Below, piece by piece: positions 3,493-21,220 of a DNA stretch of 52,640 nucleotides. Origin of the DNA: an uncultured Dehalococcoidales bacterium (GTDB taxonomy: Bacteria; Chloroflexota; Dehalococcoidia; GIF9; UBA5629); contig CAZDXZ010000001.1 in NCBI GenBank assembly GCA_964509615.1, positions 1 through 52,640 on the forward strand, read 5' to 3'. Positions within the stretch are counted from its first letter, which is position 1, and the number at the start of each line of letters is the position of its first letter. Below the pieces are notes generated by a model. It searched no databases. It saw only the letters and a program-made list of their open reading frames with translations, and was not told where the DNA came from. The position numbers and the translations under genes are program-made.

Positions 3493-3520
3493 AACCTGAT
3501 ACTTTTTACACAGAATATTT

Positions 3521-3544: not shown

Positions 3545-3658
3545 GCTTTTGTCAAGGGCAGGTGTGATTGGGTGGATGGGTTGGGGTTAGGCGATCTTGG
3601 TTGCCGGTCCGGAGCGGCGTGGAAAAACGGATTGACACAGGTTGCGGGATTGCTCAAA

Positions 3659-4375
3659 ATGGAGCAAATGGACATACAGGGGCTGTTAGCCGATATCAGC
3701 CTGCCGGGCATCTCCGCCTTCCTGCTCGGTGTGATGGCGGCGATCGGGCCTTGCACACTTGCCGCCAACCTGGCGGCGCTGGCGTATATCAGCCGCAGAC
3801 TTTCTGACCGCAGGTTCGCGGTTACCACCGGGGCCCTGTATACACTGGGCAGGATGATTACCTACACCGTGCTGGGGATGCTGATTATCTATGCCGGGCT
3901 GAGCATTCCCGCGATCGCCAACTTTCTGCAGGATTTCGGTGAGAAGGTGATGGGGCCTTTGCTGATAGCGGTAGGTCTGATCATGCTTTTTCTGGACAGG
4001 ATATCTCTGGGCGAGCACGGGAGCACAGTGGCAAACGCCGCCGGCAGGCTGGCGGATATGGGCATGCTGGGCGCTCTGCCGCTGGGCATTGTGCTGGCTC
4101 TGGCATTCTGCCCCTATAGCGCGGTGCTTTTCTTCGGTGTACTCATACCGCTGGCATTCAAGACCAGGGGTGGCGTGGGGTTGCCGGCTTTATTTGCCCT
4201 GGGCACAGGCCTTCCCGTGATGTTATTCGGTACACTCCTGTCGCTGGGCGTGGTGGGCGCGGCAAAATGGATAAATGCCATTAGCAGGGTGGAGAAATAT
4301 ATAAGGGTAGCCATGGCGCTGATCTTCATTTTGATCGGCCTTCTCTATATATGGCTGTGGCTGAATCCCTATTGA
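3659..4375 (+). CDS. CcdA/DsbD-superfamily (DsbD_2-like) polytopic membrane protein
   Basis: About 6 predicted TM helices and an N-terminal-helix Cys-Pro-type motif (AAIGPCTLAANL). Start trimmed to ATG 3659 (MEQMDIQ); the track start 3572 adds non-hydrophobic junk. Family call is moderate. Confidence 0.55.
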   Translation: MEQMDIQGLLADISLPGISAFLLGVMAAIGPCTLAANLAALAYISRRLSDRRFAVTTGALYTLGRMITYTVLGMLIIYAGLSIPAIANFLQDFGEKVMGPLLIAVGLIMLFLDRISLGEHGSTVANAAGRLADMGMLGALPLGIVLALAFCPYSAVLFFGVLIPLAFKTRGGVGLPALFALGTGLPVMLFGTLLSLGVVGAAKWINAISRVEKYIRVAMALIFILIGLLYIWLWLNPY

Positions 4376-4590: not shown

Positions 4591-6291
4591 ATGGCGGACA
4601 TTTATAGCAAAAAGCCCTGGCTGGCATTTTACGACAAGCAAGTGCCTGCAACGTTGCAGTATCCGGAGACGAGTTTCTGGGAAACGGTGGAGCCGGCGTT
4701 CAAACATGATCCCAAGCGCGTAAGCCTGCACTATATGGGTACCCCGTTCACTTTCAAGCAGATGGACGAGATGTCCAACCGCTTTGCCAATCTGCTCAAG
4801 AAGATCGGCCTGAAGAAGGGCGATACGGTGGGCATAAACCTTCCCAACCTGCCCGCGTATTATATTGGGTTGCTGGGTATACAGAAGGCCGGCTGCGTGC
4901 TGACCGGCGTGAGCCCGCTGCTGACGGCCGAGGAGCTTAACCATCAGCTCAAGGATTCCGGCGCCAAGGTGCTGGTTACGCTCGACGCCCTCTACCCGCG
5001 GGTGATCAAGGGCATCGGCGGCACCGATCTCAAGGCCATTGTTTTCACCGGCATAGCCGATTACATCCCCCCGGTGATGGCGACCTTGGCGAAAATGCTT
5101 AAGAAGATACCCACCGGCAAAGTTCTGCCCATACCCGGCATCGAGATATACCATTTCAAGGATGTGATGAAGAACATGCCGGCCACTCCCGTGGCCGAGA
5201 AGGTCAGCATGGATGATACCTGCGTAATGCAGTATACGGGAGGCACCACTGGCCTGCCCAAGGGCGCGGAATTGACCCACCGCAACATGGTGAGCCAGAT
5301 GTTCCAGGTCACCACCTGGCTGGATACTCAGATGGGAAGCGTGGTAGGCATGACGGCCTTCCCGCTGTTCCATATCGCGGGCCTGCTGGTCTGCATGGCT
5401 ATGATGTCCAAGGCCATCACCCTGATCGCCGTGCCCAATCCGCGCGACCAGCAGTTCATAATAAAGAACATGAAGAAATACCGTCCGAACGTTATCGGCA
5501 ATGTGCCTACGGTATACCTGGAGCTGATGAAGCAGCCCGGGTTCCGCGGATATGATTTCTCCGATGTGCAGTATTTCGCCAGCGGCGCCGCCCCGTTCCC
5601 TCCCGAATATATCAAGGACTTCGAAAAAATTGTGGGCGAGAACAAGCTGGTGGAGGTATACGGGCTGACTGAGACCAGCCCCATCATCACGGCCAATCCG
5701 CGCTATGGGAAGAAGAAACCCGGCGCGGTCGGCATCCCTTTCCCCGACGTCCTGATCAGGATTGTCGATCCGGCGACGGGCGAGGACCTTCCCTTCAATG
5801 AGCCGGGCGAGGTAGCGGTGAAGGGGCCGCAGGTCTTCACCAAGGGTTATTTCAAGAAGCCGCAGGAGACAGCCAATGTACTGCGAAACGGCTGGTTCCA
5901 TACCGGCGATATCGGAAGGATGGACGAGGAGGGATACCTTACCATAGTTGACAGGCTCAAGGACATGGTCAATGTCTCCGGCTTCAAGGTTTTCACCCGT
6001 GAGCTGGATGACATTATCTGCGAGCACCCCGATGTCGACATGGGCGCAACAATCGGCATACAGGATCCCAACAGGCCAGGTTCTGAAATCGTGGCATCGG
6101 CCATCATCCTCAAGCCTGGTATAGAGAAGAGCGAGGCGGAGAAGGCCAAGATCATCGAGTACCTCAAGGGCAAAGTAGCTCCCTACAAGGTCCCCAAGCG
6201 CATAGAGTTCTACGACCAGCTTCCTACCAGCGCCGTGGGCAAGATCTTGAAGAGGGAACTGCGCACCATGATGACCGAGAAGCCCAAGTAA
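4591..6291 (+). CDS. AMP-dependent acyl-CoA synthetase/ligase (FadD-like), first gene of the GRE operon
   Basis: AMP-binding motif MQYTGGTTGLPKG, GYGLTET-type motif (VYGLTETS), TGDIGRMDEEGY, and C-terminal catalytic Lys region PTSAVGKILKRELR. Strong RBS AGGAGG 8 nt upstream. Confidence 0.9.
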   Translation: MADIYSKKPWLAFYDKQVPATLQYPETSFWETVEPAFKHDPKRVSLHYMGTPFTFKQMDEMSNRFANLLKKIGLKKGDTVGINLPNLPAYYIGLLGIQKAGCVLTGVSPLLTAEELNHQLKDSGAKVLVTLDALYPRVIKGIGGTDLKAIVFTGIADYIPPVMATLAKMLKKIPTGKVLPIPGIEIYHFKDVMKNMPATPVAEKVSMDDTCVMQYTGGTTGLPKGAELTHRNMVSQMFQVTTWLDTQMGSVVGMTAFPLFHIAGLLVCMAMMSKAITLIAVPNPRDQQFIIKNMKKYRPNVIGNVPTVYLELMKQPGFRGYDFSDVQYFASGAAPFPPEYIKDFEKIVGENKLVEVYGLTETSPIITANPRYGKKKPGAVGIPFPDVLIRIVDPATGEDLPFNEPGEVAVKGPQVFTKGYFKKPQETANVLRNGWFHTGDIGRMDEEGYLTIVDRLKDMVNVSGFKVFTRELDDIICEHPDVDMGATIGIQDPNRPGSEIVASAIILKPGIEKSEAEKAKIIEYLKGKVAPYKVPKRIEFYDQLPTSAVGKILKRELRTMMTEKPK

Positions 6292-6308: not shown

Positions 6309-7451
6309 ATGAAAAAGCGTCCCGTATTCCGCACCGAACTTTGCGACATGCTTGGCACCGAATATCCGGTGATGCTGGCGGGGATGGGGACTGCAGGCGG
6401 CTACACTTTGACCGCCGCGGTTTCCAACGCCGGCGGCCTGGGCATGCTCGGCGCCACGTTTTTATGGCCTGATGAGCTCAGGGAATGGATCAGGAAAATA
6501 CGCTCCCTCACCGATAAGCCTTTCGGCGTCGACATATTGCTGCCGGCAGCCATACCCAAGGATTTCGACCTGGATAAGCTCAAGGACTACATCCCTCCCG
6601 AGCACACGGAATTTGTCCGCAAGATGGCCAAAGATTTCGGTGTCGAAGGCGCTAAAATGAAGGAGTGGCCCATCTCCGAGGAGTTCGGATGGAGCCAGTT
6701 CCAGGTGGTGAAAGAGGAGAAGGTTCCCTTCTTTGCCCTGGGACTGGGCACGCCCGACTGGCTGATACCGGAGGCGCATGAAGCCGGCATCAAGATTGTG
6801 TCGCTGGTAGGCAATGTACGCAACGCCGTCCGCATTAAAAAGATGGGGGCCGATATTATCATTGCCCAGGGACATGATGCAGGCGGACATACCGGCAGGG
6901 TAGGTACCATGGCCCTTGTTCCTCAGGTAGTGGATGCCGTGGCGCCCACGCCCGTGGTAGCCGCCGGCGGCATAGCCGACGGCCGCGGCCTTGTGGCTGC
7001 GCTGGCATTGGGCGCCATCGGCGCCTGGTGCGGTACCGCCTTTTTAGCCACCCGTGAATGTTTCTGGGATTTCGTTGACTTCGGCATGCTCAACAAGCCT
7101 ACTATCGAAGCCTATTATCGCAAGCTCATCGAGTCTGACGAAGAGGCCGAGCAGATCACCCGCATTTACAGCGGCAAGACCACCAGATCTTTTAAAAACA
7201 AGCTTAGCGAGGCCTGGGACAAGTCAGGCCTGAAAACCCTGCCCATGCCTCTGCAGAGCATGCTGGTCTCCGACCTGCTGCAGGGCATGATGGAGAAAGG
7301 CGAAGCCGAATATTATCCCATGTTCGCCGGGCAGATCACGGGACTGATCAAGGAGATCAGAAGCGCACAGGAAGTTATGGACGATATCATCGGCGGGGCT
7401 GTGAAAATCATGCAAAAACAATTCCCGTCGGAGGTGACCATTAAGGCCTGA
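6309..7451 (+). CDS. nitronate monooxygenase / FabK-like FMN-dependent oxidoreductase (NMO family TIM barrel)
   Basis: GMGTAGGYTLTAAVSNAGGLGMLGA, IIAQGHDAGGHTG, VVAAGGIADGRG. RBS GAGGAG. Confidence 0.85.
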   Translation: MKKRPVFRTELCDMLGTEYPVMLAGMGTAGGYTLTAAVSNAGGLGMLGATFLWPDELREWIRKIRSLTDKPFGVDILLPAAIPKDFDLDKLKDYIPPEHTEFVRKMAKDFGVEGAKMKEWPISEEFGWSQFQVVKEEKVPFFALGLGTPDWLIPEAHEAGIKIVSLVGNVRNAVRIKKMGADIIIAQGHDAGGHTGRVGTMALVPQVVDAVAPTPVVAAGGIADGRGLVAALALGAIGAWCGTAFLATRECFWDFVDFGMLNKPTIEAYYRKLIESDEEAEQITRIYSGKTTRSFKNKLSEAWDKSGLKTLPMPLQSMLVSDLLQGMMEKGEAEYYPMFAGQITGLIKEIRSAQEVMDDIIGGAVKIMQKQFPSEVTIKA

Positions 7452-7493: not shown

Positions 7494-8294
7494 ATGGAGT
7501 ATGAAGGTCTGATACTTGAGAAGAAGGATTACGTGGCGACATTGACCATGAACAGACCGCACAGATTGAACGCGCTGACGGGTGAGATCAGCAACGAGTA
7601 TTTGCCCAGGATATTCAGGGACCTGCAGGAGGATGATGACGTCCGTGCGCTTATCATAACCGGCGCGGGCAAAGGTTTCTGCACGGGCGCCGACGTCATT
7701 ATTTTCAACCAGGCGGCCGAGGAAGGAAGGCTGCAGGAGCTGCTGGAGCCACATGCCCAGACCATCGGCGGCGCATTCGTGATGGGCCTGTATAATCTGC
7801 AGAAGCCGGTCATTGCCGCCGTCAACGGGGTGGCCGCAGGCGGCGGCGTGTCGCTGGCGCTGCTGGCCGACATCAGGATCGCTTCAGAGAAGGCTTTGTT
7901 CAATATGGCTTTCGTCATGCGGGGACTGATACCCGATTGCGGCTGCACCTACCTTATGCCGCGCCTGCTGGGCACGGGGCGCAGCTACGAATACATGTAT
8001 ACCGGGGCGACTATCGACGCGCGCGAAGCGGAGCGCATCGGGCTGGTAAACAGGGTCGTACCACATGAGAAGCTGATGGAAGAGGCGGAAGCACTGGCGG
8101 CCAGGATCGTGCAGGGCCCCCCGCTGGCCTATAAGCAGATCAAGCGCGCGGTGCAGAGCGGCCTGCACAACACCCTGGAACAGCAGCTCTTTATCGAGAC
8201 ATACGCGCAGAAGAACCTGATGGGAAGCGAGGATTTCCGTGAGGGGCTCAACTGCTTCAGGGAGAAGCGGATGCCCGAGTTTAAGGGACGCTGA
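7494..8294 (+). CDS. enoyl-CoA hydratase/isomerase (crotonase) family protein
   Basis: LTMNRPHRLNAL, ITGAGKGFCTGADV, AAVNGVAAGGGVSLALLADIRIA, and the typical C-terminal EGLNCFREKR. Confidence 0.9.
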   Translation: MEYEGLILEKKDYVATLTMNRPHRLNALTGEISNEYLPRIFRDLQEDDDVRALIITGAGKGFCTGADVIIFNQAAEEGRLQELLEPHAQTIGGAFVMGLYNLQKPVIAAVNGVAAGGGVSLALLADIRIASEKALFNMAFVMRGLIPDCGCTYLMPRLLGTGRSYEYMYTGATIDAREAERIGLVNRVVPHEKLMEEAEALAARIVQGPPLAYKQIKRAVQSGLHNTLEQQLFIETYAQKNLMGSEDFREGLNCFREKRMPEFKGR

Positions 8295-8342: not shown

Positions 8343-10988
8343 ATGAAAGATTTCGATGCCGTAGTGGTGGGGGCGGGCCTGGGCGGAATCTCCGCTGCGA
8401 CCTACCTGGCCAAGGCGGGCAAGAAGGTTGTGCTGCTGGAGAAACATAATGTGCCGGGCGGTTATGCGACTTCGTTTCTGAGAGGGCGCTTTGAATTTGA
8501 GATCGCCCTGCACCAGCTCTCCGGTTACGGGACGGAGGAGGATAAGGGGCCCATCTGGAAAATCCTGCATGACAGCGGTGTCTCGGACCGTGTGGACATA
8601 CTGCACATCCCGGACCTGTACCGCAGCATTTTCCCCGATTTCACCATCGAGCTTCCCAAGGGCAGGCAAAACTATGAGGACGCCCTGTGCAGCCAGTTCC
8701 CGCGGGAGGCCGAGGGCATCAAGAAATTCTCCAATATCATGTTCGAATTCGCCAGGCAGGCCATGCGATCCATGCGGGTGGGCATGAAGGCGGTGATGGA
8801 GAATCCATCCGAGTACCCCGAGCTGGTCGGCAATTTCGGCAAAACGCTGTCCGAGGTGCTCAATCCTCTGGTATCCGATGAGAAGGCGCGGGCAGTGATC
8901 GGGCAGCTGTGGGGCTACTTCTGCCAGCCGCCCTCCAAGATGGCGTTCCTCATCTATGCCCTGGGACTGGTCAGCTACATCAGGTTTGGCCCGGCCCATG
9001 TCAGGGGGACGTCGCAAAATCTCTCACAGGCTTTTATCGATACGATGGAATCCTACGGCGGCGAGGTCTGGTTCAACAACGGCGCCAGGAAGATTATTGT
9101 AAAGGACGGCAAGGTGCGGGGAGTGCTGACGGAGGACGGCACCGAGATCGCCACGCAGCACGTCGTGTGCAGCGCCAACCCGGTGACCACCAGCCTGGAG
9201 CTGGTCGGGCGCGACAACATGCCGGGCTGGTACCTCAACCGGCTGGGCGGATGGAGCGGCGGCGCCAGCACATTTAACATCTACGTGGGCCTGGACTGCC
9301 CCTGCCAGGATGTCGGGCTTAACGTACACGAGAATTTCGTCAATAAGACTTATGACCTGGACGCACAGTACGAAAATATGCGCAATTCGCTTGATTATGA
9401 GCCGGACGGCAATGCCATCGTGGCTTACAACGTGGTTGATCCGACCGTTTCGCCCAGGGGCACGGCATCGTGCGTGATCACGCAGATAGCCTATGCCGAC
9501 CCCTGGCTGAAGCTGTCCCCATCCGAATATGTAGTGGCCAAGAACAGGATGGCTGAAAAGGTGCTCAAGCTGGCGGAAGTGGCGGCGCCGAATCTGAGGG
9601 AGCATATCGAGGTGATCGAGGTTGCCACGCCGCTGACCAATATCCGCTACACGGGAAATCCGCGCGGCAGCATCATCGGATTCGACGAGAACTTCACCGG
9701 TACCGGGTTCCTGCGCATACCCATGCGCGGGCCGCTGGAGGGGCTGTATTTCGCCAATGCCTGGGTCAATATCGGAGGTGGATTCGAATCGTGCATCGCC
9801 TCGGGCGCAATGGCATCGCGAGAAGTGCTGCGCGACATGGAGAAGGGTCCCTGGGATGCGGGCGAGATAACCAAGATGAAGGAATCGCTGGAAAAGCAAA
9901 AGGTGCAGGCTCATGAGCTGAAGGACACCATCACACCCGAGGATAAATTCGTGAAGAGCATCCATCCCCGCAGGCTGCAGCTCAAGGTCAAGGAGATAGT
10001 CAAAGAGACGGCCAGCGCCAAGACTTTTAGGTTGGAATCCAAGAACGGCCGGCTACCGCACTTCCGCGCCGGCCAGTATATCAACCTCTTCGTGGATATC
10101 AAGGGTGTCAAGACCTCGCGACCCTACAGCATATCGTCGACGCCGGGCAAGCCGTACTATGACATCACGGTACGCCGTGTTGACGGCGGCTTCGTTTCGC
10201 ACTACCTGCTGGACAGCGTCAAGGTCGGTGACAGCTTTGAATCAACCGGTCCCAACGGATATTTCTACTATGAGCCGCTGATGGACTCGTCGGACCTCGT
10301 TCTCCTGGCGGGCGGCAGCGGCGCAGCGCCTTTCATCTCCATCATTCGCGAGACTATTGAAAAGAAGCAGCCGCTGAAGATACATCTGATCTACGGCAGC
10401 CGCAAACCGGATGACATAATCTTCGAAAAAGAGCTTAAAGAGATCGTTGCCAAAAACAAGAACATCAAGGTCGATTACGTGATGAGCGAACCCCCGGCGG
10501 GCTGGAAGGGCGCCTCGGGCTTCCTGGATGACAAGGTGATCTCGAAGCTTGCGGGCGATCTGAAGGGAAAGACGGTGTTTGTGTGCGGACCGGCGCTGAT
10601 GTATGAGCTCTGCGGACCGGCGCTGGCCAAGCTGGGTGTGCCCGCCAGGCGGACCAAGCGCGAAGCATACGGGCCGCCGCAGGATGTGACCAAAGAGCCT
10701 GCCTGGCCAGGAACAGCCGCGTCCAAGGAATTTGAGGTCATTGAAATGCGGAGCGGCAAGAAAGCCAAAGCCAAGGCCGGTGAGCCGCTGATGAACTCGC
10801 TGGAACGGGCGGGCATCGTGGTACCGGCCATCTGCCGCTCCGGTGAGTGCACGGCCTGCCGCACCAAGCTGATCTCAGGCAAGGTCTTCACACCCTCCAG
10901 GGTGCATCACCGCCAGGCGGACAGGAAGTCGGGATATATTCATCCCTGTATGAGCTATCCTCTTGACGATCTGCGGATCAAAGTGTAA
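8343..10988 (+). CDS. three-module fusion: CrtI/phytoene-desaturase-family FAD oxidoreductase + FNR-like FAD/NAD(P)-binding reductase + plant-type 2Fe-2S ferredoxin (881 aa)
   Basis: N-terminal Rossmann DAVVVGAGLGGISAATYLAKAGKKVVLLEKHNVPGG. From about aa 537, RPYSISS (RxYS), LLAGGSGAAPF (GGxGxxP) and VFVCGP. C-terminal CRSGECTACRTK...HPC (Cx4Cx2C...C). Confidence 0.85.
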   Translation: MKDFDAVVVGAGLGGISAATYLAKAGKKVVLLEKHNVPGGYATSFLRGRFEFEIALHQLSGYGTEEDKGPIWKILHDSGVSDRVDILHIPDLYRSIFPDFTIELPKGRQNYEDALCSQFPREAEGIKKFSNIMFEFARQAMRSMRVGMKAVMENPSEYPELVGNFGKTLSEVLNPLVSDEKARAVIGQLWGYFCQPPSKMAFLIYALGLVSYIRFGPAHVRGTSQNLSQAFIDTMESYGGEVWFNNGARKIIVKDGKVRGVLTEDGTEIATQHVVCSANPVTTSLELVGRDNMPGWYLNRLGGWSGGASTFNIYVGLDCPCQDVGLNVHENFVNKTYDLDAQYENMRNSLDYEPDGNAIVAYNVVDPTVSPRGTASCVITQIAYADPWLKLSPSEYVVAKNRMAEKVLKLAEVAAPNLREHIEVIEVATPLTNIRYTGNPRGSIIGFDENFTGTGFLRIPMRGPLEGLYFANAWVNIGGGFESCIASGAMASREVLRDMEKGPWDAGEITKMKESLEKQKVQAHELKDTITPEDKFVKSIHPRRLQLKVKEIVKETASAKTFRLESKNGRLPHFRAGQYINLFVDIKGVKTSRPYSISSTPGKPYYDITVRRVDGGFVSHYLLDSVKVGDSFESTGPNGYFYYEPLMDSSDLVLLAGGSGAAPFISIIRETIEKKQPLKIHLIYGSRKPDDIIFEKELKEIVAKNKNIKVDYVMSEPPAGWKGASGFLDDKVISKLAGDLKGKTVFVCGPALMYELCGPALAKLGVPARRTKREAYGPPQDVTKEPAWPGTAASKEFEVIEMRSGKKAKAKAGEPLMNSLERAGIVVPAICRSGECTACRTKLISGKVFTPSRVHHRQADRKSGYIHPCMSYPLDDLRIKV

Positions 10989-11024
10989 AAGTAAATTATG
11001 AGTATGTAGCTAAGGAGGCTAATT

Positions 11025-13421
11025 ATGACTACAAGAACAGTGAACTTAATGGTTAAAACTCCCATCAAGGCGCAGCAGGTGGCGCTGGATTATCTGAGCG
11101 CCGATGCCAGGGCGACGCGGCCCGGTTTCATCTGGTCGCTCGATCTGGAACGCGCGAGGCTGGTGACGCAGTCTTACAAAATGACCGAAGGCCAGCCGAT
11201 AATCACCCGGCGTGCCAAAGCGCTGGCGCATATACTGGATAATATGACCCTTTACATCAGGCCCGATGAAATGATCGTGGGTAATTATGCCTCCAACAGC
11301 GACTCGGTGCCTTTTTACCCTGAGCTGGCCTGGAAGTGGATAGCCAGGGAGACCGCTCCGGGGCAGGTCTACCAGAGCATGCTCAACGATGAGGGCAGAA
11401 AGGAATTGAAGGAGATCGGCGAGTACTGGGGAGACCGCTCCATCCACCACATGAGCAAGAAATACCTTACCCCCGAGCTGAAGGAGCAGTTCTGGATCTT
11501 CAACTGGGAATCAGCCACACCCAACTATGACAAGATACTCTCCATAGGTTTGAAAGGCATCCTGGGGGAAGCCAGAGAGAGGTTGAAGAAGCTCGATCGA
11601 GAATACATGGACGAGACGATCAACGGCATTGATTTCGTCAGCAAAAAGGAATTTCTGGAGAGCACCATCATCAGCATGGAGGCGGTGTGCAGGTGGTCGA
11701 AGAGGTATGCTGAGCTGGCGCGCAGCCTGGCGAAATCAGAGAAGGACGTGCTCAGGAAAGTTGAGCTCGGCAACATTGCCGAGGCCTGCGAACAGGTGCC
11801 GGAGCACCCGGCGCGCACGCTGCTCGAGGCAATACAGTCATACTGGTTCATCCACCTGGTAGTCAACTTCCTCGAGATGCCCCAGGTGGGTTCCGGCGTA
11901 CGCTTCGACGTGGTATTCAACCCGTTCTATGAGAAGGACCTGGCCGCGGGCAAGATAACACGTGAATCGGCGCAGGAGCTGGTGGAGTTCCTTTTCGTTA
12001 AATTCCAGGAGACGGGCTTCCTGCATGCGCCTATCTGGTCCGGCTTCGGCGGTGGGGCGCTGGGGTTCCAGACCGTCACAATCGGCGGTGTGGACTCCAA
12101 GGGCCGAGATGTCACAAATGAGATGAGCCTTATCATCCTCGATGCCACCAAGACCGTCCGCGCCATCGTGCCGCCGCTGGCGCTGCGCTGGCATGACGGC
12201 ATACCGCGCAAGCTGGTGGACAAGGCTATCGAGTGCCTGGCATCCGGGATGCCGCAGCCGGCTATCTTCAACGACAAGGTGTGTGTGCTGAGACTGGTCA
12301 ACATGGGCACGCCGCTTGAGGATGCACGCAACTACTCCATCAACAACTGCATGGTGCCCACCATACCCGGCAAAAACTTCAGCCACATCTCGGCCTGGGC
12401 CAGCGGTGTGCCGGCGCCCCTCTGCCTCAACCAGGCGCTGGGCATAGACCCGCTGGCTATCTATAAGAAAGCGGGCAACAAGGTGCTCGATCCCGAGAAA
12501 GTAAAGTCCATGCAGGAAGTTTTCGATGCGTTCATAGAGAACTACCGGCTGGTGATTCACCGTCTGGTGCGCATCGCCAATATCGCAGACGCCCTTTACA
12601 AAGCGTGGGCGCCGCGCCCCTTCCTGTCTTCCGTTATCGATGACTGCATCGAGAGGGCGCAGGATGTGCGCGATTGGAACTATATGCCCGATTACCGCGA
12701 TGTAACGCTTTTCGGCCTGAACACGGTGGCAGATTCGCTGACAGCCGTGAAAAAGGTGGTTTTCGACGACAAAAAGATCAGCATGAAGCAGCTTGTGGAA
12801 GCTTTGAAGAACAACTGGAAAGGTTACGAAGAGATTCGCCAGCTATGCCTGCGCGCCCCCAAGTTCGGCAATGACGATGATTATGCCGATCTGATCTCGA
12901 GCGAGGTTGCACGCAGAATAGAAGAGGAGACCAGCAAATGCAAGACCAACTGGGGCACATCGGTGCATGTGGACGGGACCGCCGCCACCGCCTGGTGGAG
13001 CTTCGGCCGCGTTTGCGGCCCGACCCCGGATGGGAGGATGAGCGGAGATCCCTTCAACGACGGGACCATCTCCCCCATGGCGGGACGTGATAAGAAAGGC
13101 CCTACCGCGGTGCTCAAATCCGTAGCGAAGGTAGACCCGCTGGAGAGCTGGAACCACCTCTTCAACCAGAGCTTCATGCCGCAGTTCCTGGTGGGACACA
13201 ATGCCGAGGTCTTCGCTCAATACCTGAAGACTTTTGCCGACATGGGGATACACCATATCCAGTTCTCCACGGTCAACAGGGAGACACTGGAGGATGCGCA
13301 GGACCATCCTGAGAAATATCCCACACTGATGGTCAGGGTGGCTGGATTCGCCGCGTACTTCGTCGATCTCGACCGCAGCATCCAGGATTCCATCATAGCC
13401 AGGACTCCGCAGTGCTTTTAA
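11025..13421 (+). CDS. glycyl radical enzyme, PFL2/PflD-like (798 aa)
   Basis: C-terminal glycine-radical motif MVRVAGFAAYFVDLDRSIQDSIIARTP (Gly774). Candidate thiyl Cys442 in ...DARNYSINNCMVPTIPGK.... N-terminus is typical of the PFL2 family (ERARLVTQSYKMTEGQP..RRAKAL). RBS AAGGAGG. Confidence 0.9.
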   Translation: MTTRTVNLMVKTPIKAQQVALDYLSADARATRPGFIWSLDLERARLVTQSYKMTEGQPIITRRAKALAHILDNMTLYIRPDEMIVGNYASNSDSVPFYPELAWKWIARETAPGQVYQSMLNDEGRKELKEIGEYWGDRSIHHMSKKYLTPELKEQFWIFNWESATPNYDKILSIGLKGILGEARERLKKLDREYMDETINGIDFVSKKEFLESTIISMEAVCRWSKRYAELARSLAKSEKDVLRKVELGNIAEACEQVPEHPARTLLEAIQSYWFIHLVVNFLEMPQVGSGVRFDVVFNPFYEKDLAAGKITRESAQELVEFLFVKFQETGFLHAPIWSGFGGGALGFQTVTIGGVDSKGRDVTNEMSLIILDATKTVRAIVPPLALRWHDGIPRKLVDKAIECLASGMPQPAIFNDKVCVLRLVNMGTPLEDARNYSINNCMVPTIPGKNFSHISAWASGVPAPLCLNQALGIDPLAIYKKAGNKVLDPEKVKSMQEVFDAFIENYRLVIHRLVRIANIADALYKAWAPRPFLSSVIDDCIERAQDVRDWNYMPDYRDVTLFGLNTVADSLTAVKKVVFDDKKISMKQLVEALKNNWKGYEEIRQLCLRAPKFGNDDDYADLISSEVARRIEEETSKCKTNWGTSVHVDGTAATAWWSFGRVCGPTPDGRMSGDPFNDGTISPMAGRDKKGPTAVLKSVAKVDPLESWNHLFNQSFMPQFLVGHNAEVFAQYLKTFADMGIHHIQFSTVNRETLEDAQDHPEKYPTLMVRVAGFAAYFVDLDRSIQDSIIARTPQCF

Positions 13422-14371
13422 ACTCACAGGAGGCCGGCGAGACGGGCGACGTTAAGTCTGAAAAAGACCTGAAAGGGCTGGTATTTAATATCCAGCGCTA
13501 CAGCATTCACGACGGACCGGGCATAAGGACGACGGTCTTTTTCAAAGGTTGCCCGCTGCACTGCAGGTGGTGCTCCAATCCGGAATCTATCAGTCCCAAG
13601 CCCGAGATACTGGTGAGGGAGGCCGGGTGCAACGGCTGCCGGCGCTGTTTAGACGTTTGTTCGGCGGGAGCTTTATCACTGGCCTCCACCGGCCTGTGGC
13701 TGGACAGGGCTAAATGCGACCTCTGTCTGAAATGCATTGACGCTTGCTGGGAAGACGCGATAGAGGTGGCCGGGCGTTATATGACGCTCGATGAGGTGGT
13801 GGAAGAGTGCCGGAGGGACGAGCCCTTCTACCGCAACTCCGGCGGCGGCGTAACGCTTTCGGGAGGCGAGCCGCTGTTGCAGGCGGACTTCGCCCTGGCG
13901 CTTCTCAACAGGTGCAGAGCGCTGGGCTATAACACAGCGCTGGATACCTGCGGGCAGGTAGCATGGGGCGTTCTGGACAGGGCGCTCGATTCTGCCGACC
14001 TCATACTATTCGATATCAAGCATCTGGATGCCGATGAGCACCGGGACGGCACAGGCGCGGACAACAAGCTGATTCTGTCCAACCTTGAGAAAGCTGTGAG
14101 TTCCGGCAAGTCGCGGATCTGGATCAGGATTCCCGTGATACCGGGATACAACGACTCCAGCGAGTATATTGATAAGCTGGCCGCCAGGTTGCGCGGTATG
14201 AAGGCCGAGAAAGTGTCTGTGCTCGGTTATCACGAGTTCGGCCGTCCCAAATACCAGTCGCTGGGGAAGGCCTACCAGCTCAGCGGCCGCAAGCCGCTGG
14301 GCAGTATCCGCCTCAACGAGATCGTGGATATATTCAAGTCGGCCGGCCTGGACGCCACCGCAGGGTATTGA
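13412..14371 (+). CDS. glycyl-radical-enzyme activating enzyme (radical SAM, with two auxiliary ferredoxin-type clusters)
   Basis: GPGIRTTVFFKGCPLHCRWCSNPE (CxxxCxxC), then CNGCRRCLDVC and CDLCLKCIDAC, then SGGEPLLQ. The GTG start overlaps the GRE stop by 10 nt. Confidence 0.9.
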   Translation: MLLNSQEAGETGDVKSEKDLKGLVFNIQRYSIHDGPGIRTTVFFKGCPLHCRWCSNPESISPKPEILVREAGCNGCRRCLDVCSAGALSLASTGLWLDRAKCDLCLKCIDACWEDAIEVAGRYMTLDEVVEECRRDEPFYRNSGGGVTLSGGEPLLQADFALALLNRCRALGYNTALDTCGQVAWGVLDRALDSADLILFDIKHLDADEHRDGTGADNKLILSNLEKAVSSGKSRIWIRIPVIPGYNDSSEYIDKLAARLRGMKAEKVSVLGYHEFGRPKYQSLGKAYQLSGRKPLGSIRLNEIVDIFKSAGLDATAGY

Positions 14372-14419: not shown

Positions 14420-14453
14420 GGGGCTTCGCCGAAGCGAAGCCCCTTGATCTTTC
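14420..14453 (+). terminator. Rho-independent terminator closing the GRE operon
   Basis: GGGGCTTCGC-cgaa-GCGAAGCCCC, a perfect 10-bp stem (14420..14443), followed by the T-rich TTGATCTTTC. Confidence 0.7.
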
Positions 14454-14809
14454 AGATCCTTGCTCCTCCCTACTCTCCCCCAGAGGAAAGCCTCAATACT
14501 TTGCTTTATCCTTCATTTTTGCAGCTTCTTTACTGCTTAACGGAGAGCTCGGGAGTTTTACCTGCTCTCCCCTTCTGCACGCCCGCAGACTATCTCTGCT
14601 CCTCCTGCAGGGGAGAGCTTCCTCGAGGAAAGAGCCATTCTACAAACATGGCCTGTTTCTTGACCATTTCCTGCCTCCCGGGGGGCTTATCGGTCTCAAT
14701 GCCCCTCAATTTCATGCTACTACTAACGACCGGAGCGGTCAAACTGAATGGAGAGCGCCTTGCAGACCGTCCCTGGGTGCTACATAATGTTGTGGTTGAA
14801 AGGGAACAA

Positions 14810-15862
14810 ATGATGGCGAAAAAGATGTTGCTGGGCCTGGGCACCGACGAGTTGAAAAACCTGACGGCCGATCTCGGGCAGAAGAAGTTTCGTGGCAAAC
14901 AGGTGTCCGACTGGATATACAGGCGCGGCTGCCGGCAGGTCGACGATATGACCGATCTCCCGGCCCCCTTCAGGGCCGTGCTGGACGAGTCGTGGACGGT
15001 GGGAAGGTCATCAGTCAGGAATGTCAGCACGGGCAGGGACGGCACATTCAAACTGCTGCTGGTGCCTTTTTACGGCGACCTGGTGGAGACCGTGGGCATG
15101 CCGTATGATGACCGTTTCTCCTGCTGTGTGTCCACCCAGGTGGGATGCCCGGTGGCCTGTGCCTTTTGCGCTACAGGCGCCGACGGTTTCAAACGCAACC
15201 TGGCTGCGGGCGAGATAGTCGACCAGGTCCTGACCGTGGGAGATATCGCAGTCCGTAGAAAGATACTCGCTGATGAGGGAAGGGTCAGCCATGTTGTATT
15301 TATGGGAATGGGTGAACCGTTGCTTAATTACGATGCCACCCTGACCGCGCTGCGTCTGATCAATGAAGAGCTGAAGATAGGGATGCGCAATATAACGGTT
15401 AGCACGATCGGTTATGTTCCCGGTATATACCGGCTGGCGGCTGAAAATATGCAGTTCACGCTGGCGGTCTCGCTGCATGCCGCCTCGGACGCATTGCGCA
15501 GAAAGCTGGTGCCTGGCATGTCACGCTACCTGTTGAAGGATATAGTTGCAGCCTGCCAGCATTACGTCAACCAGACGGGCCGGCGGGTTACGTTCGAGTA
15601 CTGCCTGCTGAAAGGGATAAACAATAGTGCGGCGGAAGCGGCCGCCCTGGCCTCGCTGCTAAAAGGATTAAACTGCCACGTGAACCTCATCCCCTTTAAC
15701 GAGGTGCCGCACGGCAATTACAGGCATCCCGAAGCCCCGGCAATCGCTTTCTTCAGACAGGTGCTCGAGAGATCGAGCATAACCGTAACGCAGCGGGAGC
15801 AGAAGGGAGCGGGCATACAGGCGGCCTGCGGGCAGTTAGGCCGGCAATCCTTATCTAAATAA
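14810..15862 (+). CDS. rlmN: 23S rRNA/tRNA adenine-C2 methyltransferase RlmN (radical SAM)
   Basis: The track ORF 14444..15862 is over-extended. The RlmN-like sequence starts at ATG 14810 (MMAKKMLLGLGTDELKNL..FRGKQVSDWIY). Motifs CPVACAFCATG, GMGEPLLNY, and the C-terminal GAGIQAACGQL. Confidence 0.9.
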   Translation: MMAKKMLLGLGTDELKNLTADLGQKKFRGKQVSDWIYRRGCRQVDDMTDLPAPFRAVLDESWTVGRSSVRNVSTGRDGTFKLLLVPFYGDLVETVGMPYDDRFSCCVSTQVGCPVACAFCATGADGFKRNLAAGEIVDQVLTVGDIAVRRKILADEGRVSHVVFMGMGEPLLNYDATLTALRLINEELKIGMRNITVSTIGYVPGIYRLAAENMQFTLAVSLHAASDALRRKLVPGMSRYLLKDIVAACQHYVNQTGRRVTFEYCLLKGINNSAAEAAALASLLKGLNCHVNLIPFNEVPHGNYRHPEAPAIAFFRQVLERSSITVTQREQKGAGIQAACGQLGRQSLSK

Positions 15863-15907
15863 GTAGATATACGGATTGTCAAAGTCCCCGTCATGCTCCC
15901 ATCAAAC

Positions 15908-15935
15908 TTGACTTTACGAGTAACTATGTTACAAT
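15908..15935 (+). promoter_or_regulatory. sigma70-type promoter ahead of the acyl-CoA ligase array
   Basis: TTGACT (15908..15913), 16-nt spacer, TACAAT (15930..15935). Confidence 0.55.
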
Positions 15936-15959
15936 TGACCGGTCAATTAACGATTGACC
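15933..15959. promoter_or_regulatory. candidate operator: 16-bp perfect palindrome plus a third half-site
   Basis: AATTGACCGGTCAATT (15933..15948) overlaps the -10 hexamer. A further ATTGACC lies at 15953..15959. Confidence 0.5.
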
Positions 15960-16007
15960 ACAAGACGGGAACACATCGCGCCGTTGGCGATGCGGGTCGG
16001 AGTCGAA

Positions 16008-17714
16008 ATGGATAAATACCCCTGGTTTAAGAATTATGATGAAGGTGTGCCTCGCACACTTGAGCCCTATCCCCCAACGACTATGATCGAGGTGGTCGAT
16101 GAATCGGCCCGAACCAAACCCTACAGGGCCATGTTCTATTTCAAGGGGCATAGGCTACTCTATTACGACTTTGTAAGGCAAAGCGATGCACTGGCCGCGG
16201 GCCTGGTTGCCCAGGGCATAAAGAAGGGGGACCGCGTGGCCCTGCTCCTTCCCAATTCGCCGCAGATGGTGCTGGCTTTTCAGGGCATCTGGAAGGCAGG
16301 CGCAATAGCCGTCCCTATCAACCCACTCTACACCGAACACGAGCTCAAGCATGCACTAATGGAGGTGGGCGCCTCGGCGGTGATAGTGCTGAATCCCTTC
16401 TACGCAGCCATCAAGAATATACAGTCCGGCACCGTGATCAGGACCGTTATTGCCACCAGCATCAAGGAATACCTGCCGGCGCACCTGGGCCTGCTTTTCA
16501 CACTGGCCAGGGAGAAGAAGGAGGGCTACCGCATATCTCTTCAGAAGGGTGACGTCTGGTTTCAGGAACTGCTGCGGCGGCACAGAAACGATCCCAGACC
16601 TGATATTCATGTCGGGCCGGAGGATGCAGCCGTGATACTTTTCAGCGGAGGTACCACCGGCACTCCCAAGGGCGCCGTCGGCACACACGGCGCCCTCATT
16701 ATGACCGCCATGCAGATCAATGCCTGGCTCGGCCCTGTGCTTGAGAAATGGGAGGACAAAGTGGCACTGACCATGCCGCTATTCCACGTTTTTGGATGTG
16801 CGGGTGCTCTGGGGACCGCCATGATAAACCGTTCGTCCTGCATCCTTATTCCCAACCCGCGAGATATCACCGACGTGGTCAAAAGCATCAGGCAGTACAA
16901 GCCGGCCTTCATGCCCGGCGTACCCACGTTTTACATCGGCATTATGAACCATCCCCTGGTGAAATCGGGCAGGATTAAGTTGTCGGGCATGAAAATTTGC
17001 ATCGTGGGCGCCGCCCCTCTGATGGCCGATACCAAGAAACAGTTTGAAAGCATGACGGGCGGAAGGCTGCTGGAAGGCTATGCCATGACGGAGACCATGC
17101 AGGCGGCGACGCTCAATCCTGTGATGGGTGTTAATAAAGAAGGCTCGGTGGGCATGCCTCTGCCCGACGTGATTATTAAGATCGTGGATGCCGAGACCGG
17201 CCGGGACAGCATGAAAGCCGGCGACCTTGGCGAGATATGTTTTAAGGCCCCGAACCTGATGACCGGCTACTGGAACAGGCCACAGGAAACAGCGGATATG
17301 CTGAGGGACGGCTGGCTGTATACCGGCGACATCGGTTATCTCGATAATGACGGGCACCTCTTCCTGCACAGCCGCAAGAAGGATATAATCAAGACCAGCG
17401 GTTTTCAAGTCTGGCCGCGCGAGGTAGAGGAGGTGTTGCATGAGCACCCGGCGGTTATGGAGGCCAGCGTAGCCGGCGTGCCCGATCAATACCAGGGCGA
17501 AGCGGTTAAGGCATGGGTAGTTTTGAATAGCGGGATGAAATGTTCGGCCGATGAGCTCAGGGAGCATTGCCGCTCCAAACTATCGGCTTACAAGGTGCCC
17601 CGGTACATAGAATTTAAAGATAATCTGCCTAAAACCCAGATTGGCAAGATTCTGAGGAGGGTTTTGATCGAGGAAGAGAAAGGCAAACAGGGAGGGGAGA
17701 CCGATAACACATAG
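16008..17714 (+). CDS. FadD-like AMP-dependent acyl-CoA ligase, array paralog 1
   Basis: Start trimmed to ATG 16008 (MDKYPWFKNYDEGVP), matching the N-termini of the paralogs. ILFSGGTTGTPKG; LPKTQIGKILRR. Confidence 0.88.
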   Translation: MDKYPWFKNYDEGVPRTLEPYPPTTMIEVVDESARTKPYRAMFYFKGHRLLYYDFVRQSDALAAGLVAQGIKKGDRVALLLPNSPQMVLAFQGIWKAGAIAVPINPLYTEHELKHALMEVGASAVIVLNPFYAAIKNIQSGTVIRTVIATSIKEYLPAHLGLLFTLAREKKEGYRISLQKGDVWFQELLRRHRNDPRPDIHVGPEDAAVILFSGGTTGTPKGAVGTHGALIMTAMQINAWLGPVLEKWEDKVALTMPLFHVFGCAGALGTAMINRSSCILIPNPRDITDVVKSIRQYKPAFMPGVPTFYIGIMNHPLVKSGRIKLSGMKICIVGAAPLMADTKKQFESMTGGRLLEGYAMTETMQAATLNPVMGVNKEGSVGMPLPDVIIKIVDAETGRDSMKAGDLGEICFKAPNLMTGYWNRPQETADMLRDGWLYTGDIGYLDNDGHLFLHSRKKDIIKTSGFQVWPREVEEVLHEHPAVMEASVAGVPDQYQGEAVKAWVVLNSGMKCSADELREHCRSKLSAYKVPRYIEFKDNLPKTQIGKILRRVLIEEEKGKQGGETDNT

Positions 17715-19515: not shown

Positions 19516-21207
19516 TTGTCCGACAAAAGATGGTTAAAAAACTATGACAAAGGGGTTCCCGCTTCGCTGGAACCCTATCCGCAGAAGACGCTTGTCGACT
19601 ATGTGGATGATGCGGTTAAAGAGCATCCCGATTACCCCATGGTGCTGTTTAAGAAGAGGAAGATGTCATATGCCGAGATCCAGAAGCTTAGCGACGAGTT
19701 CGCGGCTGTCCTGGTGGCCAAAGGCGTTAAAAAGGGAGACCGCGTTGCCCTGATCATGCCCAATTGCCCCCAGGCCATCATCTGCCGCTGGGGCGCATGG
19801 AAAGCCGGCGCCATCCTGGTACACATGAATCCCATGTACACCGAGTCCGAGCTCGAGCATGCCCTCAAGGACTGCGGCGCTGAGACTGTGGTAGTGCTGA
19901 CATTGTTCTACAATACGGTCAAGAAGCTGCAGCCGAGGACCAAATTGAAGCTGGTCATAGCTACAAGCATTAAGGACTACCTTCCCCCGGTGCTCAAGGT
20001 GCTTTTCACCCTGGCCAAGGAGAAGAAGGAAGGACATCGCATCGCCCTGCAATCCGGCGATTTCTGGCTGGCCGAGCTGATTAAGTCCCAGGCCGGAGCG
20101 AAACGGCCTGATGTGAAAGTGCTCCCCAGTGACGATGCCCTGATACTTTTCTCCGGCGGCACGACCGGCACGCCCAAGGGCGTGGTGGGAACGCATCATT
20201 CCCAGGTTATCACGGGACTGCAGTTCAGCTCCTGGTTCGGTGAGATAGTCGAGCCTTACAAGGACGTGATGATGCTGGTGCTGCCGCTTTTCCACTCATT
20301 CGCCACATATGCCGTAATGAGCACGGCAATCGTCGGGCATGCCGCGATGTCGCTGGTGCCCAACCCGCGCGACCGCGACGACGTGGTTGCCACCATCAAC
20401 CACGATAAGCCGTCGTTCTTCCCCGCCGTACCCGCCATGTTCATCGGACTGCTGGAGCATCCGGCGGTCAAGGCGGGCAAGGTGGACTTCAGCTCGATGA
20501 AATGCTGCAACTCGGGCGCGGCCCCGCTGCTGTATGAGACAAAGAAACGCTTTGAAGACCTGACCGGTGGGCGCATCGTGGAAGGATACGGCCTGACCGA
20601 GTCTACCATGGCCTGCTGCTGCACTCCTTTCCGCGGAACATGGAAGCAGGGCTCCGTGGGCATGCCGCTCCCGGACGTTATAATCAGGATCGGCGATATC
20701 GAGACCGGCGAGGGCGACATGCCTGCCGGCAAGGAGGGGGAGATCGTCTTCAACGCTCCGCAGTTGATGGTCGGGTACTGGAACAGGCCCGAGGAGACCA
20801 AGGAGATGCTGCGTAATGGCTGGCTGTATACGGGCGATGTCGGTTATATGGATGATGACGGTTACGTTTTCATCACGTCGCGCAAAAAGGACCTGATTAA
20901 GCCCAGCGGATTCCAAGTATGGCCGAGGGAAGTTGAAGAGGTCATCAGCAGCCATCCGGCGGTGGCCGAGGTCAGCGTCGCCGGCATTCCCGATGCCAAG
21001 CAGGGCGAAGCTGTAAAAGCCTGGGTGGTGCTGGAAGCCGGCAAGACGGCTACGGTGGAGGAGATAAAGGCCTGGTGCAAGGAGAAGCTGGTCGCCTACA
21101 AGATACCCAAGTTCGTGGAGTTCCGCAGCGACCTGCCCAAGACAATGGTGGGCAAGGTGCTGCGAAGGGTCCTTCAGGAGGAAGAAGCGGCCAAAAGCAA
21201 GAAGTAA
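19516..21207 (+). CDS. FadD-like AMP-dependent acyl-CoA ligase, array paralog 3
   Basis: TTG start after AAGGAGG. ILFSGGTTGTPKG; LPKTMVGKVLRR. Confidence 0.9.
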   Translation: MSDKRWLKNYDKGVPASLEPYPQKTLVDYVDDAVKEHPDYPMVLFKKRKMSYAEIQKLSDEFAAVLVAKGVKKGDRVALIMPNCPQAIICRWGAWKAGAILVHMNPMYTESELEHALKDCGAETVVVLTLFYNTVKKLQPRTKLKLVIATSIKDYLPPVLKVLFTLAKEKKEGHRIALQSGDFWLAELIKSQAGAKRPDVKVLPSDDALILFSGGTTGTPKGVVGTHHSQVITGLQFSSWFGEIVEPYKDVMMLVLPLFHSFATYAVMSTAIVGHAAMSLVPNPRDRDDVVATINHDKPSFFPAVPAMFIGLLEHPAVKAGKVDFSSMKCCNSGAAPLLYETKKRFEDLTGGRIVEGYGLTESTMACCCTPFRGTWKQGSVGMPLPDVIIRIGDIETGEGDMPAGKEGEIVFNAPQLMVGYWNRPEETKEMLRNGWLYTGDVGYMDDDGYVFITSRKKDLIKPSGFQVWPREVEEVISSHPAVAEVSVAGIPDAKQGEAVKAWVVLEAGKTATVEEIKAWCKEKLVAYKIPKFVEFRSDLPKTMVGKVLRRVLQEEEAAKSKK

Positions 21208-21220
21208 TTACGTGAGTAAG

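Follow-up and report, generated by a model that had tools for sequence, protein, structure and literature searches.

Glycyl radical enzymes (GREs), which are oxygen-sensitive and catalyse some of the most demanding chemistry of anaerobic metabolism, fall into seven classes in a 2026 review, in which whole clades are left unassigned and archaeal GREs resembling pyruvate formate-lyase (PFL) stand without an assigned function. Each newly assigned GRE class has opened a new pathway, as seen for choline lyase, hydroxyproline dehydratase, isethionate lyase and the sugar-phosphate isomerases. The eliminases and isomerases whose loops are described in the review keep a C-x-E motif, whose Glu forms a hydrogen bond to the substrate. 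Among the X-succinate synthases (XSS), benzylsuccinate synthase (BSS) and (1-methylalkyl)succinate synthase (MASS) bind fumarate in a common manner, using an oxyanion hole formed by the Cys loop and an Arg (BSS Arg508, MASS Arg492), and BSS Gln707 or MASS Glu690 also hydrogen-bonds the fumarate (PMC12358834). Modelling of BSS adds fumarate contacts from Tyr197, Ser199, Trp613 and Asn615 (PMC4848970). For the decarboxylases, the residues shown or proposed to be essential are Glu505 and Glu637 in HPAD, Glu502 and Arg226 in IAD, and Gln484, Trp495 and Tyr691 in PAD. Here we compare these systems with a GRE gene carried by a 52,640-nucleotide stretch of DNA from an uncultured Dehalococcoidales bacterium (contig CAZDXZ010000001.1, positions 1 to 52,640; the whole stretch analysed, hereafter the window). 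Its product appears to represent an uncharacterised family with an essentially invariant N-N-C-M-V-P loop around the catalytic Cys.

A glycyl radical enzyme with an unusual Cys loop

The gene, its two radical motifs and the adjoining activase gene lie as follows.

11025..13421, + strand: GRE catalytic subunit, 798 aa (open reading frame; Pfam PFL-like and Gly_radical domains)
12333..12374, + strand: Cys loop Y437-K450, YSINNCMVPTIPGK, with the catalytic Cys442 at 12348-12350 (alignment to references)
13335..13403, + strand: glycyl radical motif R771-R793, fitting the GRE fingerprint in full
13412..14371, + strand: GRE-activating radical SAM enzyme, 319 aa (TIGR02494)

In Pfam searches the protein matched the PFL-like domain with an E value of 5e-164 and the Gly_radical domain with one of 5e-28. 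Gly774 (codon 774, GGA at 13344-13346) lies within RVAGFAAYFVDLDRSIQDSIIAR, which satisfies the GRE fingerprint RVxG[FWY]x6-8[FL]x4Qx2[IV]x2R (PMC13450708), and R771, V772 and G774 are invariant in an alignment of 42 family sequences (mean column identity 72%). The activase gene shares 10 nt with the end of the GRE gene, stop codon included, adjoins the GRE gene in 10 of 13 family loci and encodes a protein scoring 345 bits on TIGR02494, for which the cut-off is 174. One CX3CX2C motif (residues 47-54) and two ferredoxin-type CX2CX2CX3C motifs place this activase in the three-cluster type. An AlphaFold2 (AF2) model of the GRE, built from the 42 family sequences, reached a pLDDT of 85 and a pTM of 0.90, and superposed on all solved GREs with template modelling (TM) scores of 0.85-0.90. 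Since every GRE falls in that range, the fold search was uninformative as a means of telling the classes apart. Because of the Pfam domains, the complete Gly fingerprint, the alignment of the catalytic Cys, the three-cluster activase and the confident canonical fold, we regard 11025-13421 as a genuine, complete GRE gene with its own activase, and consider it very likely that the product is a functional GRE belonging to a new family.

The TGC at 12348-12350 is codon 442, within DARNYSINNCMVPTIPGKNF, and the loop around it reads Y-S-I-N-N-C-M-V-P-T-I-P-G-K. We aligned it using phmmer against PDB chains, where Cys442 fell on the Cys of diol dehydratase, of CutC (G-C-V-E-P) and of the arylacetate decarboxylase AAD, and using MAFFT L-INS-i, where it fell on C433 of glycerol dehydratase (GDH), BSS C493, PflB C419 and the Cys of MasD, HypD, CutC and YbiW. 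The GDH, HypD, CutC, YbiW and PflB references were taken from annotated plasmid records. A tblastn search over plasmids found no XSS references; BssA was instead that of Aromatoleum tolulyticum, located by a genome scan for a bssA primer sequence and essentially identical to the crystallised TutD (4PKC, 1953 bits), and the MasD reference comprised residues 47-849 from a PDB alignment. The initial annotation had proposed Cys442 as the thiyl-radical Cys and Gly774 as the glycyl radical site. Both assignments stand, since the catalytic Cys of each reference GRE falls opposite Cys442 and the fingerprint around Gly774 is complete.

The residues flanking Cys442 set the loop apart. Asn441, at Cys-1, aligns with PflB C418, so the adjacent Cys pair of the formate lyases is absent, and identity as PFL or another 2-oxoacid formate lyase was ruled out on account of the single Cys. 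Val444, at Cys+2, aligns with the Glu of the eliminase C-x-E motif. With Asn at Cys-1 and Val at Cys+2, the loop belongs, as first read, neither to the CC nor to the C-x-E type. In the 42-sequence alignment Y437, S438, I439, C442, M443, P445, P448, G449 and K450 are invariant, and N440, N441 and V444 are at least 90% conserved. The Cys loop is evidently under strong selection. Loops that lack the Glu are also found beyond this family, in XSS (C-M-S-P), AAD (C-V-L), PAD (Gln484) and many uncharacterised representatives of 50%-identity clusters. Such loops are common among uncharacterised GREs, and the family is a good target rather than a shock to the specialist.

A homologue search over 5.8 billion proteins listed 120 homologues at 59-95% identity, about 115 of which read YSINNCMVPT(I/V)PGKN or nearly so. 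The named homologues listed come from Chloroflexi, Smithellaceae and Thermodesulfobacteriota, and from metagenome-assembled genomes (MAGs) of Lokiarchaeia, Hermodarchaeota, Jordarchaeaceae and Promethearchaeota, and the 95%-identity cluster of the window GRE consists of Dehalococcoidia MAGs. The protein reaches no NCBIfam equivalog cut-off and scores 541 bits on the PFL2/glycerol-dehydratase subfamily model TIGR01774, against a cut-off of 678. All solved GREs are approximately 26-35% identical to it, the PDB match scores being 461 bits for GDH (the best, at ~33-35% identity), 373 for BSS, 355 for MasD and 351 for AAD. In a library of 50%-identity clusters the family makes up one or two entries; the next representatives are P0122 (49% identity, S-N-C-M-W-P) and P0135 (39%, N-H-C-M-Q-P), and the others are at most 44% identical.

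The family is not described in the 2026 GRE review. Literature searches on it in Asgard archaea, in Dehalococcoidia and in recent GRE work returned nothing specific, and among the top-ranked papers since 2024 that mention GREs, none appears from its title or abstract opening to treat this family. We consider the family new because its member falls below the equivalog cut-offs, its solved relatives are distant, identity drops outside the family and the literature is silent on it. As far as NCBIfam, the PDB and the titles and abstract openings of recent GRE papers go, the N-C-M-V-P loop is not standard in any characterised class. With an unusual, invariant loop and members across Chloroflexota, Thermodesulfobacteriota and several Asgard lineages, the family fits the gap left by the review.

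Two subtypes can be told apart. One (H-I-S-A-W / RVAGFA / DGTA, with Ile455) accounts for 83 of the 120 listed sequences, the window GRE among them. The other (H-R-S-A-W / RV(A/C)GYS / DGTV, with Arg455) accounts for 32 and comprises all the 785-aa Asgard proteins and some bacterial ones. The subtypes differ at candidate pocket positions, and their substrates may differ.

Relation to described GRE classes

To place the family, we built a neighbour-joining (NJ) tree of 157 sequences (references, family members and full-length representatives), rooted on PflB and bootstrapped 30 times; the representatives were the 150 nearest to the query, and IslA, HPAD, PAD, IAD and full-length AAD are not among the sequences. 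The family is monophyletic in 30/30 bootstraps, as is the C-M-x-P group that it forms with P0122 and P0135. About 39 of the 157 sequences make up the smallest clade that includes the family together with BssA and MasD, and GDH, HypD, CutC and YbiW fall outside it, again in 30/30. Every member of this clade is without Glu at Cys+2, whereas most sequences outside it carry C-x-E. Within the Glu-less clade the family lies outside the XSS sub-clade. By this placement the family appears as part of a Glu-less radiation that includes the X-succinate synthases. Standing beside hydrocarbon-activating enzymes in the tree, yet without their fumarate-binding residues, it offers a concrete and testable target.

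Related metagenomic loci carry further Glu-less loops (C-M-S-W, C-M-R-W, C-V-Y-(L/M/I)). Sediment metagenomes (L138-L163, P0122-P0140) hold a large uncharacterised radiation of Glu-less GREs with C-M-W-P, C-M-Q-P, C-M-S-W, C-M-R-W, C-V-Y-L and C-V-S-W loops, many of them adjoining genes for acyl-CoA ligase, enoyl-CoA hydratase (ECH) and acyl-CoA dehydrogenase (ACAD).

Four further segments bear on the active site.

11505..11522, + strand: beta-1 motif W161-E162-S163-A-T165-P166, register equal in four alignments
12036..12071, + strand: Gly-rich loop W338-Q349, WSGFGGGALGFQ (family alignment)
12696..12701, + strand: Arg558-Asp559 pair, at the start of the strand that carries BSS Trp613/Asn615/Ile617
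12972..12980, + strand: Asp650-Gly651-Thr652 on beta-8, invariant in the 42-sequence alignment

Beta-1 carries a substrate site common to GREs (PMC8473560), and S163 occupies it, at the position of GDH His164, CutC Asp216 and BSS Ser199, with W161 at that of BSS Tyr197. Across the family this site, which is His160 in HypD and Gln193 in IslA, holds Ser, Cys or Ala; it is bordered by Glu162 (at least 90% conserved) and followed by the invariant T165 and P166. The Gly-rich loop, of the pattern W-S-G-x-G-G-G-A-(L/I)-G-(F/Y)-Q, takes the place of the segment with BSS Phe385/Leu391 and GDH Tyr339. Its G344, G347 and Q349 are invariant, W338, G340, G342 and G343 are at least 90% conserved, and AF2 confidence is low over residues 333-346 in its region. 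Arg558 is invariant and followed mostly by Asp, in a few members by Glu; this Arg-acidic pair is absent from the neighbouring families and from XSS. On beta-8, Thr652 aligns with BSS Gln707 and GDH Tyr640. Asp650 comes to the position of IslA Arg678, a placing made indirectly through HypD Thr645 = IslA Phe682 (PMC8473560); in IslA, Arg678 binds the sulfonate.

The glycerol and 1,2-propanediol dehydratases (1R8W, 5I2G, 9RCO) are the best sequence match (461 and 444 bits, 33-35% identity) and the best fold match (TM 0.89). They are of similar length, have P-G-K at Cys+6 to Cys+8, have no accessory subunits and use an activase of the three-cluster type. In contrast, the glycerol-binding residues of GDH are replaced in the MAFFT alignment (E435 by V444, H164 by S163, H281/S282 by Q287/V288, D447 by S456 and Y640 by T652), the family stands apart in the tree, and no microcompartment or diol-pathway genes lie near the GRE gene. 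Identity as a dehydratase or lyase was set aside, both for the replacement of the Glu and four further substrate residues and for the branching of the family away from the eliminases. What has been lost of the eliminase features thus extends beyond the Cys loop. The earlier judgement that a Glu-assisted elimination is unlikely had been drawn from the loop; it is borne out by the change of E435 to V444, by the other replaced GDH substrate residues and by the separation of the four eliminase and isomerase references tested in 30/30 bootstraps.

Likeness to XSS (BSS alpha 4PKF/5BWE; MasD 9O8U) is found in the loop, C-M-S-P there and C-M-V-P here without Glu at Cys+2, in the common Glu-less NJ clade, in TM scores of 0.88-0.90, in the placing of W161 and S163, which every alignment puts opposite Tyr197 and Ser199, fumarate ligands of BSS, and in neighbour genes of the beta-oxidation type. 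Against this, the GRE is only ~29-30% identical to XSS and lacks an N-terminal extension; Asn-Asn precedes its Cys where XSS have a hydrophobic pair, and its Gly-rich loop stands where BSS has Phe385. An equivalent of BSS Arg508 (MASS Arg492) is absent from the family in every alignment: MAFFT puts Arg508 on Ala457, and a profile-profile alignment of the family with six XSS-type sequences places it within a 4-residue XSS insertion that is missing here. The residue opposite BSS Trp613 depends on the alignment, being Arg558 (L-INS-i), Tyr557 (MAFFT-auto) or Asp559 (hhalign), and is never Trp; Gln707 (MASS Glu690) corresponds to Thr652 in all alignments. The W-x-N and (P/G)-Q-(S/A) of XSS-like sequences correspond to Y-R-D-V-T and D-G-T in the family, whereas the XSS-like representatives P0148, P0145, P0140 and P0169 keep the Arg, W-x-N and the Gln. 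Arg558 was considered as a relocated fumarate anchor at the Trp613 position; we withdrew this candidate because MAFFT-auto gives Tyr557 and hhalign Asp559 there, and we claim no more than the presence of the Arg-acidic pair. With the acidic Asp559 at Trp613, as in the profile-profile alignment, binding of a dicarboxylate would be disfavoured.

The small subunits are missing as well. No conserved Cys-rich small open reading frame (ORF) of the BssB/BssC kind stands beside the GRE gene in the 13 family loci; the small ORFs that do recur there lie antisense within adjoining genes, as their shadows. The window leaves no room for a small-subunit gene, with a gap of 36 bp upstream of the GRE gene and an overlapping gene downstream, and so the beta, gamma and (in MASS) delta subunits have no counterpart here. 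Since equivalents of Arg508, Trp613 and Gln707 and the small subunits are all lacking, the enzyme is, on these alignments, not an XSS by the class-defining features. The initial annotation had leaned towards a reaction like fumarate addition and had named the fumarate-binding Arg and Trp as residues to look for. The C-M-x-P motif and the Glu-less clade shared with BssA and MasD keep part of that leaning alive, but the two residues have no equivalent in any alignment and the rest of the fumarate site and the small subunits are not there. Labelling single-Cys PFL-like metagenomic genes as alkyl- or benzylsuccinate synthases is therefore unsafe, at least for this family.

AAD (7E7L) and PAD resemble the window enzyme in having a Glu-less loop and in being single-subunit enzymes with an activase. 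When the search is confined to the 160 residues surrounding the Cys loop, AAD gives the best PDB match (E 4e-19, the next being 3e-14); over the full length it scores 351 bits, and its loop reads G-G-C-V-L against N-N-C-M-V here. A 93-residue AAD fragment lies closest to P0184, P0250, P0222 and P0203, outside the family's clade. The residue at Cys+2 is Val, neither Glu nor Gln; of the decarboxylases, the comparison covered that 93-residue AAD fragment.

Archaeal PFL-like GREs of debated or predicted function were also compared, namely Archaeoglobus fulgidus PFL2 (2F3O) and the Hermodarchaeota 'Ass/Bss' genes; the family too has archaeal members, among the Asgard. The former is distant (346 bits, 30% identity). 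The latter were labelled Ass/Bss in the Hermodarchaeota paper from BLAST similarity, a single-Cys loop and a homology model, and their sequences are described with Gly before the Cys, where the family has Asn. Taking these comparisons together, the window GRE is probably neither a formate lyase, a C-x-E eliminase or isomerase, nor a canonical XSS.

Gene context and candidate chemistry

The GRE and activase genes close an apparent six-gene operon, with gaps of 17-48 bp or an overlap, and an array of ligase genes follows downstream (functions of the first four from Pfam/NCBIfam).

4591-6291, + strand: FadD-like acyl-CoA ligase
6309-7451, + strand: FMN enzyme resembling FabK and nitronate monooxygenase (NMO)
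7494-8294, + strand: ECH
8343-10988, + strand: CrtI-like flavoprotein with fused FNR and 2Fe-2S ferredoxin domains, 881 aa
15954-28180, + strand: seven FadD-like ligase genes, head to tail, 47-80% mutual identity

The NMO-like, ECH and CrtI-fusion genes are each found in 5/13 family loci, in a changed gene order. The Chloroflexota loci L003, L130 and L134 also carry these NMO-like and ECH genes, arranged differently, together with a protein resembling old yellow enzyme (OYE) and dienoyl-CoA reductase, ACAD, SCP2 and an iron-containing alcohol dehydrogenase; L003 and L130 also have the CrtI fusion and a MarR gene. Neighbours are variable at the other family loci and include SCP2, ACAD, patatin, ceramidase, thiolase/SCPx, a FadR-like regulator, a YiiD-type thioesterase and DinB- or thioredoxin-like proteins. 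A metagenome scan yielded at least seven in-family loci. For neighbour counts we clustered the ORFs within 8 kb of the GRE gene at 13 family and 22 near-family loci; an AMP-ligase was near the GRE gene in 12/35 loci, ECH in 10/35, ACAD in 10/35, a TetR regulator in 5/35 and an SCPx-type thiolase in 4/35. The whole clade is thus moderately associated with acyl-CoA catabolism, in parallel to the processing of XSS products. For the window GRE itself we put the chances of such a link at about even. The size of the ligase array suggests a broad range of acid substrates.

From what is established for GREs, the activase is expected to set a radical on Gly774, from where it passes to Cys442. With no base in the loop and the hydroxyl-binding residues of the dehydratases gone, Glu-assisted loss of a heteroatom from the substrate radical is improbable, and carbon-carbon chemistry could take its place. 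In its likeliest form this would be a non-canonical hydroalkylation related to that of XSS, in which a substrate radical formed by C-H abstraction would add to an unsaturated carboxylate. The acceptor could be held by backbone amides of C-M-x-P together with Ser163, Thr652 and the Arg558-Asp559 pair, and the reaction would proceed without accessory subunits. The phylogenetic neighbours and the gene context suggest a product or substrate that goes into CoA ligation and beta-oxidation; the acid product might be activated by the FadD-like CoA ligases encoded nearby and passed to enzymes of the beta-oxidation type. As a whole, radical carbon-carbon chemistry feeding an acyl-CoA pathway is our best explanation, though a tentative one that may well be wrong, and hydroalkylation specifically is doubtful.

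Several points weigh against this explanation. Besides the missing fumarate-binding residues and small subunits, and the unfavourable Asp559, many genomes carry the GRE and activase genes alone among unrelated neighbours. The genomes are also rich in beta-oxidation genes, so the neighbourhood signal may partly be background, and none of the mutase, carboxyltransferase and CoA-transferase genes of the alkyl- and benzylsuccinate pathways was seen near the gene. The tree is distance-based, samples the neighbourhood of the query only and is without IslA and the decarboxylases, and shifts of beta strands among GREs make prediction of chemistry from sequence unreliable (PMC8473560).

Other readings of the same evidence were weighed. 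We judge it improbable that the enzyme is a 1,2-eliminase or isomerase whose base has been relocated to Glu162 (beta-1), Asp/Glu559 (beta-7) or Asp650 (beta-8). Glu162 is indeed well conserved beside the beta-1 substrate site, Asp650 is invariant at the IslA Arg678 position, the conserved acidic residue 559 would face the pocket by the profile alignment, glycerol and propanediol dehydratase are the best matches in both sequence and fold, and strand shifts in GREs let atypical positions reach the substrate (PMC8473560). However, the eliminases and isomerases described in the 2026 review keep C-x-E, all 30 bootstraps keep the family apart from GDH, HypD, CutC and YbiW, none of the five GDH substrate-binding positions is retained, and by strand alternation Glu162 should point outward, W161 and S163 matching the inward-facing BSS Tyr197 and Ser199. 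That the enzyme is a canonical fumarate-adding XSS, as claimed for Hermodarchaeota PFL-like genes, is very improbable indeed. The residue comparisons already contradict it, the equivalents of Arg508, Trp613 and Gln707 that XSS-like representatives keep being absent; there are no beta or gamma subunits, and the family lies outside the XSS sub-clade. In its favour are the C-M-x-P loop and the common Glu-less clade. Hermodarchaeota MAGs do hold family members, and the paper gives Hermodarchaeota GREs an Ass/Bss function, but the loop described there has Gly before the Cys and may belong to a different GRE.

A decarboxylase of an arylacetate-type or other acid, akin to AAD or PAD, would lose CO2 after thiyl attack at the alpha C-H or in a Kolbe-type reaction. 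Around the loop the AAD structure 7E7L, itself Glu-less with G-G-C-V-L-H-Q-V-P-G-K, is the best PDB match (E 4e-19), PAD has Gln at Cys+2, and a carboxylate could be bound by the invariant Arg558. At many family loci the GRE and activase genes form a bare pair, often beside a MarR-type regulator. Such cassettes resemble known decarboxylase loci, which are not known to have CoA-pathway neighbours. The product of a decarboxylase would need no CoA ligase, ECH or ACAD genes nearby, and over its full length AAD is only the 23rd PDB match (351 bits) and the lowest of the listed fold matches. Its fragment groups with representatives outside the family's clade, in a tree from which the full AAD, PAD, IAD and HPAD sequences are absent, and we hold this reading to be quite improbable. 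It is also improbable that the direct substrate is a fatty or isoprenoid acid, a lipid or an acyl-CoA, whose radical isomerisation, rearrangement or C-C cleavage would clear an obstacle to beta-oxidation. FadD-like, FabK-like, OYE/dienoyl-CoA-reductase-like, ECH, ACAD and SCP2 neighbours recur across distant taxa, as do SCPx-type thiolase, patatin, ceramidase, the FadR-like regulator and the YiiD-type thioesterase. The window has eight ligase paralogues, and the GxGGGxxG segment offers backbone amides that could hold a phosphate or carboxylate. On the other hand, we know of no GRE with an acyl-CoA as radical substrate, the enrichment is modest in genomes rich in such genes, and no particular lipid is directly indicated. 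The 2026 review likewise describes no GRE with an acyl-CoA radical substrate.

Returning to radical carbon-carbon chemistry, it is tempting to speculate that the family and its neighbours with C-M-W-P, C-M-Q-P, C-M-S-W and C-M-R-W loops form a subunit-free class, distinct from XSS, that activates C-H bonds, forms C-C bonds and feeds hydrocarbons or lipid compounds into beta-oxidation. We regard this wider generalisation as unlikely. If it were true, Dehalococcoidia, Thermodesulfobacteriota and Asgard archaea could feed inert hydrocarbons and lipid compounds of anoxic sediments into beta-oxidation, and a function would for the first time be assigned to a PFL-like GRE in archaea.

Further genes of the window and of related loci

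The remaining genes considered in the window are given below.

1841-3013, - strand: putative regulator, N-terminal winged helix (weak match) and two 4Fe-4S motifs (Pfam)
3064-3828, - strand: MarR-family putative regulator (Pfam)
14444-15862, + strand: rlmN-like radical SAM gene, between the activase gene and the ligase array
28245-30530, - strand: GatZ/KbaZ-like protein fused to a PfkB kinase, 761 aa
30573-32606, - strand: pyridine-nucleotide disulfide oxidoreductase with a C-terminal rhodanese, 677 aa, resembling CoA-disulfide reductase
37694-43227, + strand: MASE3 hybrid histidine kinase, 804 aa, and a 1040-aa receiver/GAF/PAS/HD-GYP-type (HD_5) protein

The MarR and Fe-S protein genes lie upstream of the GRE operon and are divergent from it, and a MarR gene adjoins the GRE gene in L002, L003 and L130. 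The Fe-S protein (~335-390 aa) combines a weak TrmB-like winged-helix match and an uncharacterised centre with two C-terminal 4Fe-4S ferredoxin motifs. It recurs in L001 (Lokiarchaeia; 15233-16297, - strand), in L002 (8220-9224, - strand) and in the near-family locus L163, and may be a redox-sensing regulator of the GRE. A role for 1841-3013 as a reductive-dehalogenase-like partner was unsupported, the protein giving just the weak winged-helix match and the ferredoxin motifs.

For the CrtI-FNR-ferredoxin fusion, no characterised equivalent was found among its matches. The idea of a limonene-dehydrogenase-type enzyme was dropped, as the best solved relatives are phytoene/carotene desaturases (E 1e-12). 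The ligase encoded upstream in the GRE operon (4591-6291) is 32-37% identical to the seven of the array, and a closely related locus (L133) has six ligase genes. The rlmN-like ORF has ~115 extra N-terminal residues from an upstream TTG that is probably a false start; the gene probably has a housekeeping function and breaks up the cluster. The genes for the MASE3 kinase and the HD_5 protein overlap by 4 nt and appear to encode a signalling pair; nothing obvious ties them to the GRE.

Two related loci hold more than one GRE. In L129 a second GRE of 838 aa (20400-22397) follows a FadR-like GntR regulator less than 10 kb from the family member, and L136 has two GRE-type ORFs. In the Lokiarchaeia locus L001, a B12-binding protein and a URO-D-type methyltransferase (9898-11625, - strand) are encoded directly downstream of the GRE activase, a pairing typical of corrinoid methyltransferase systems.

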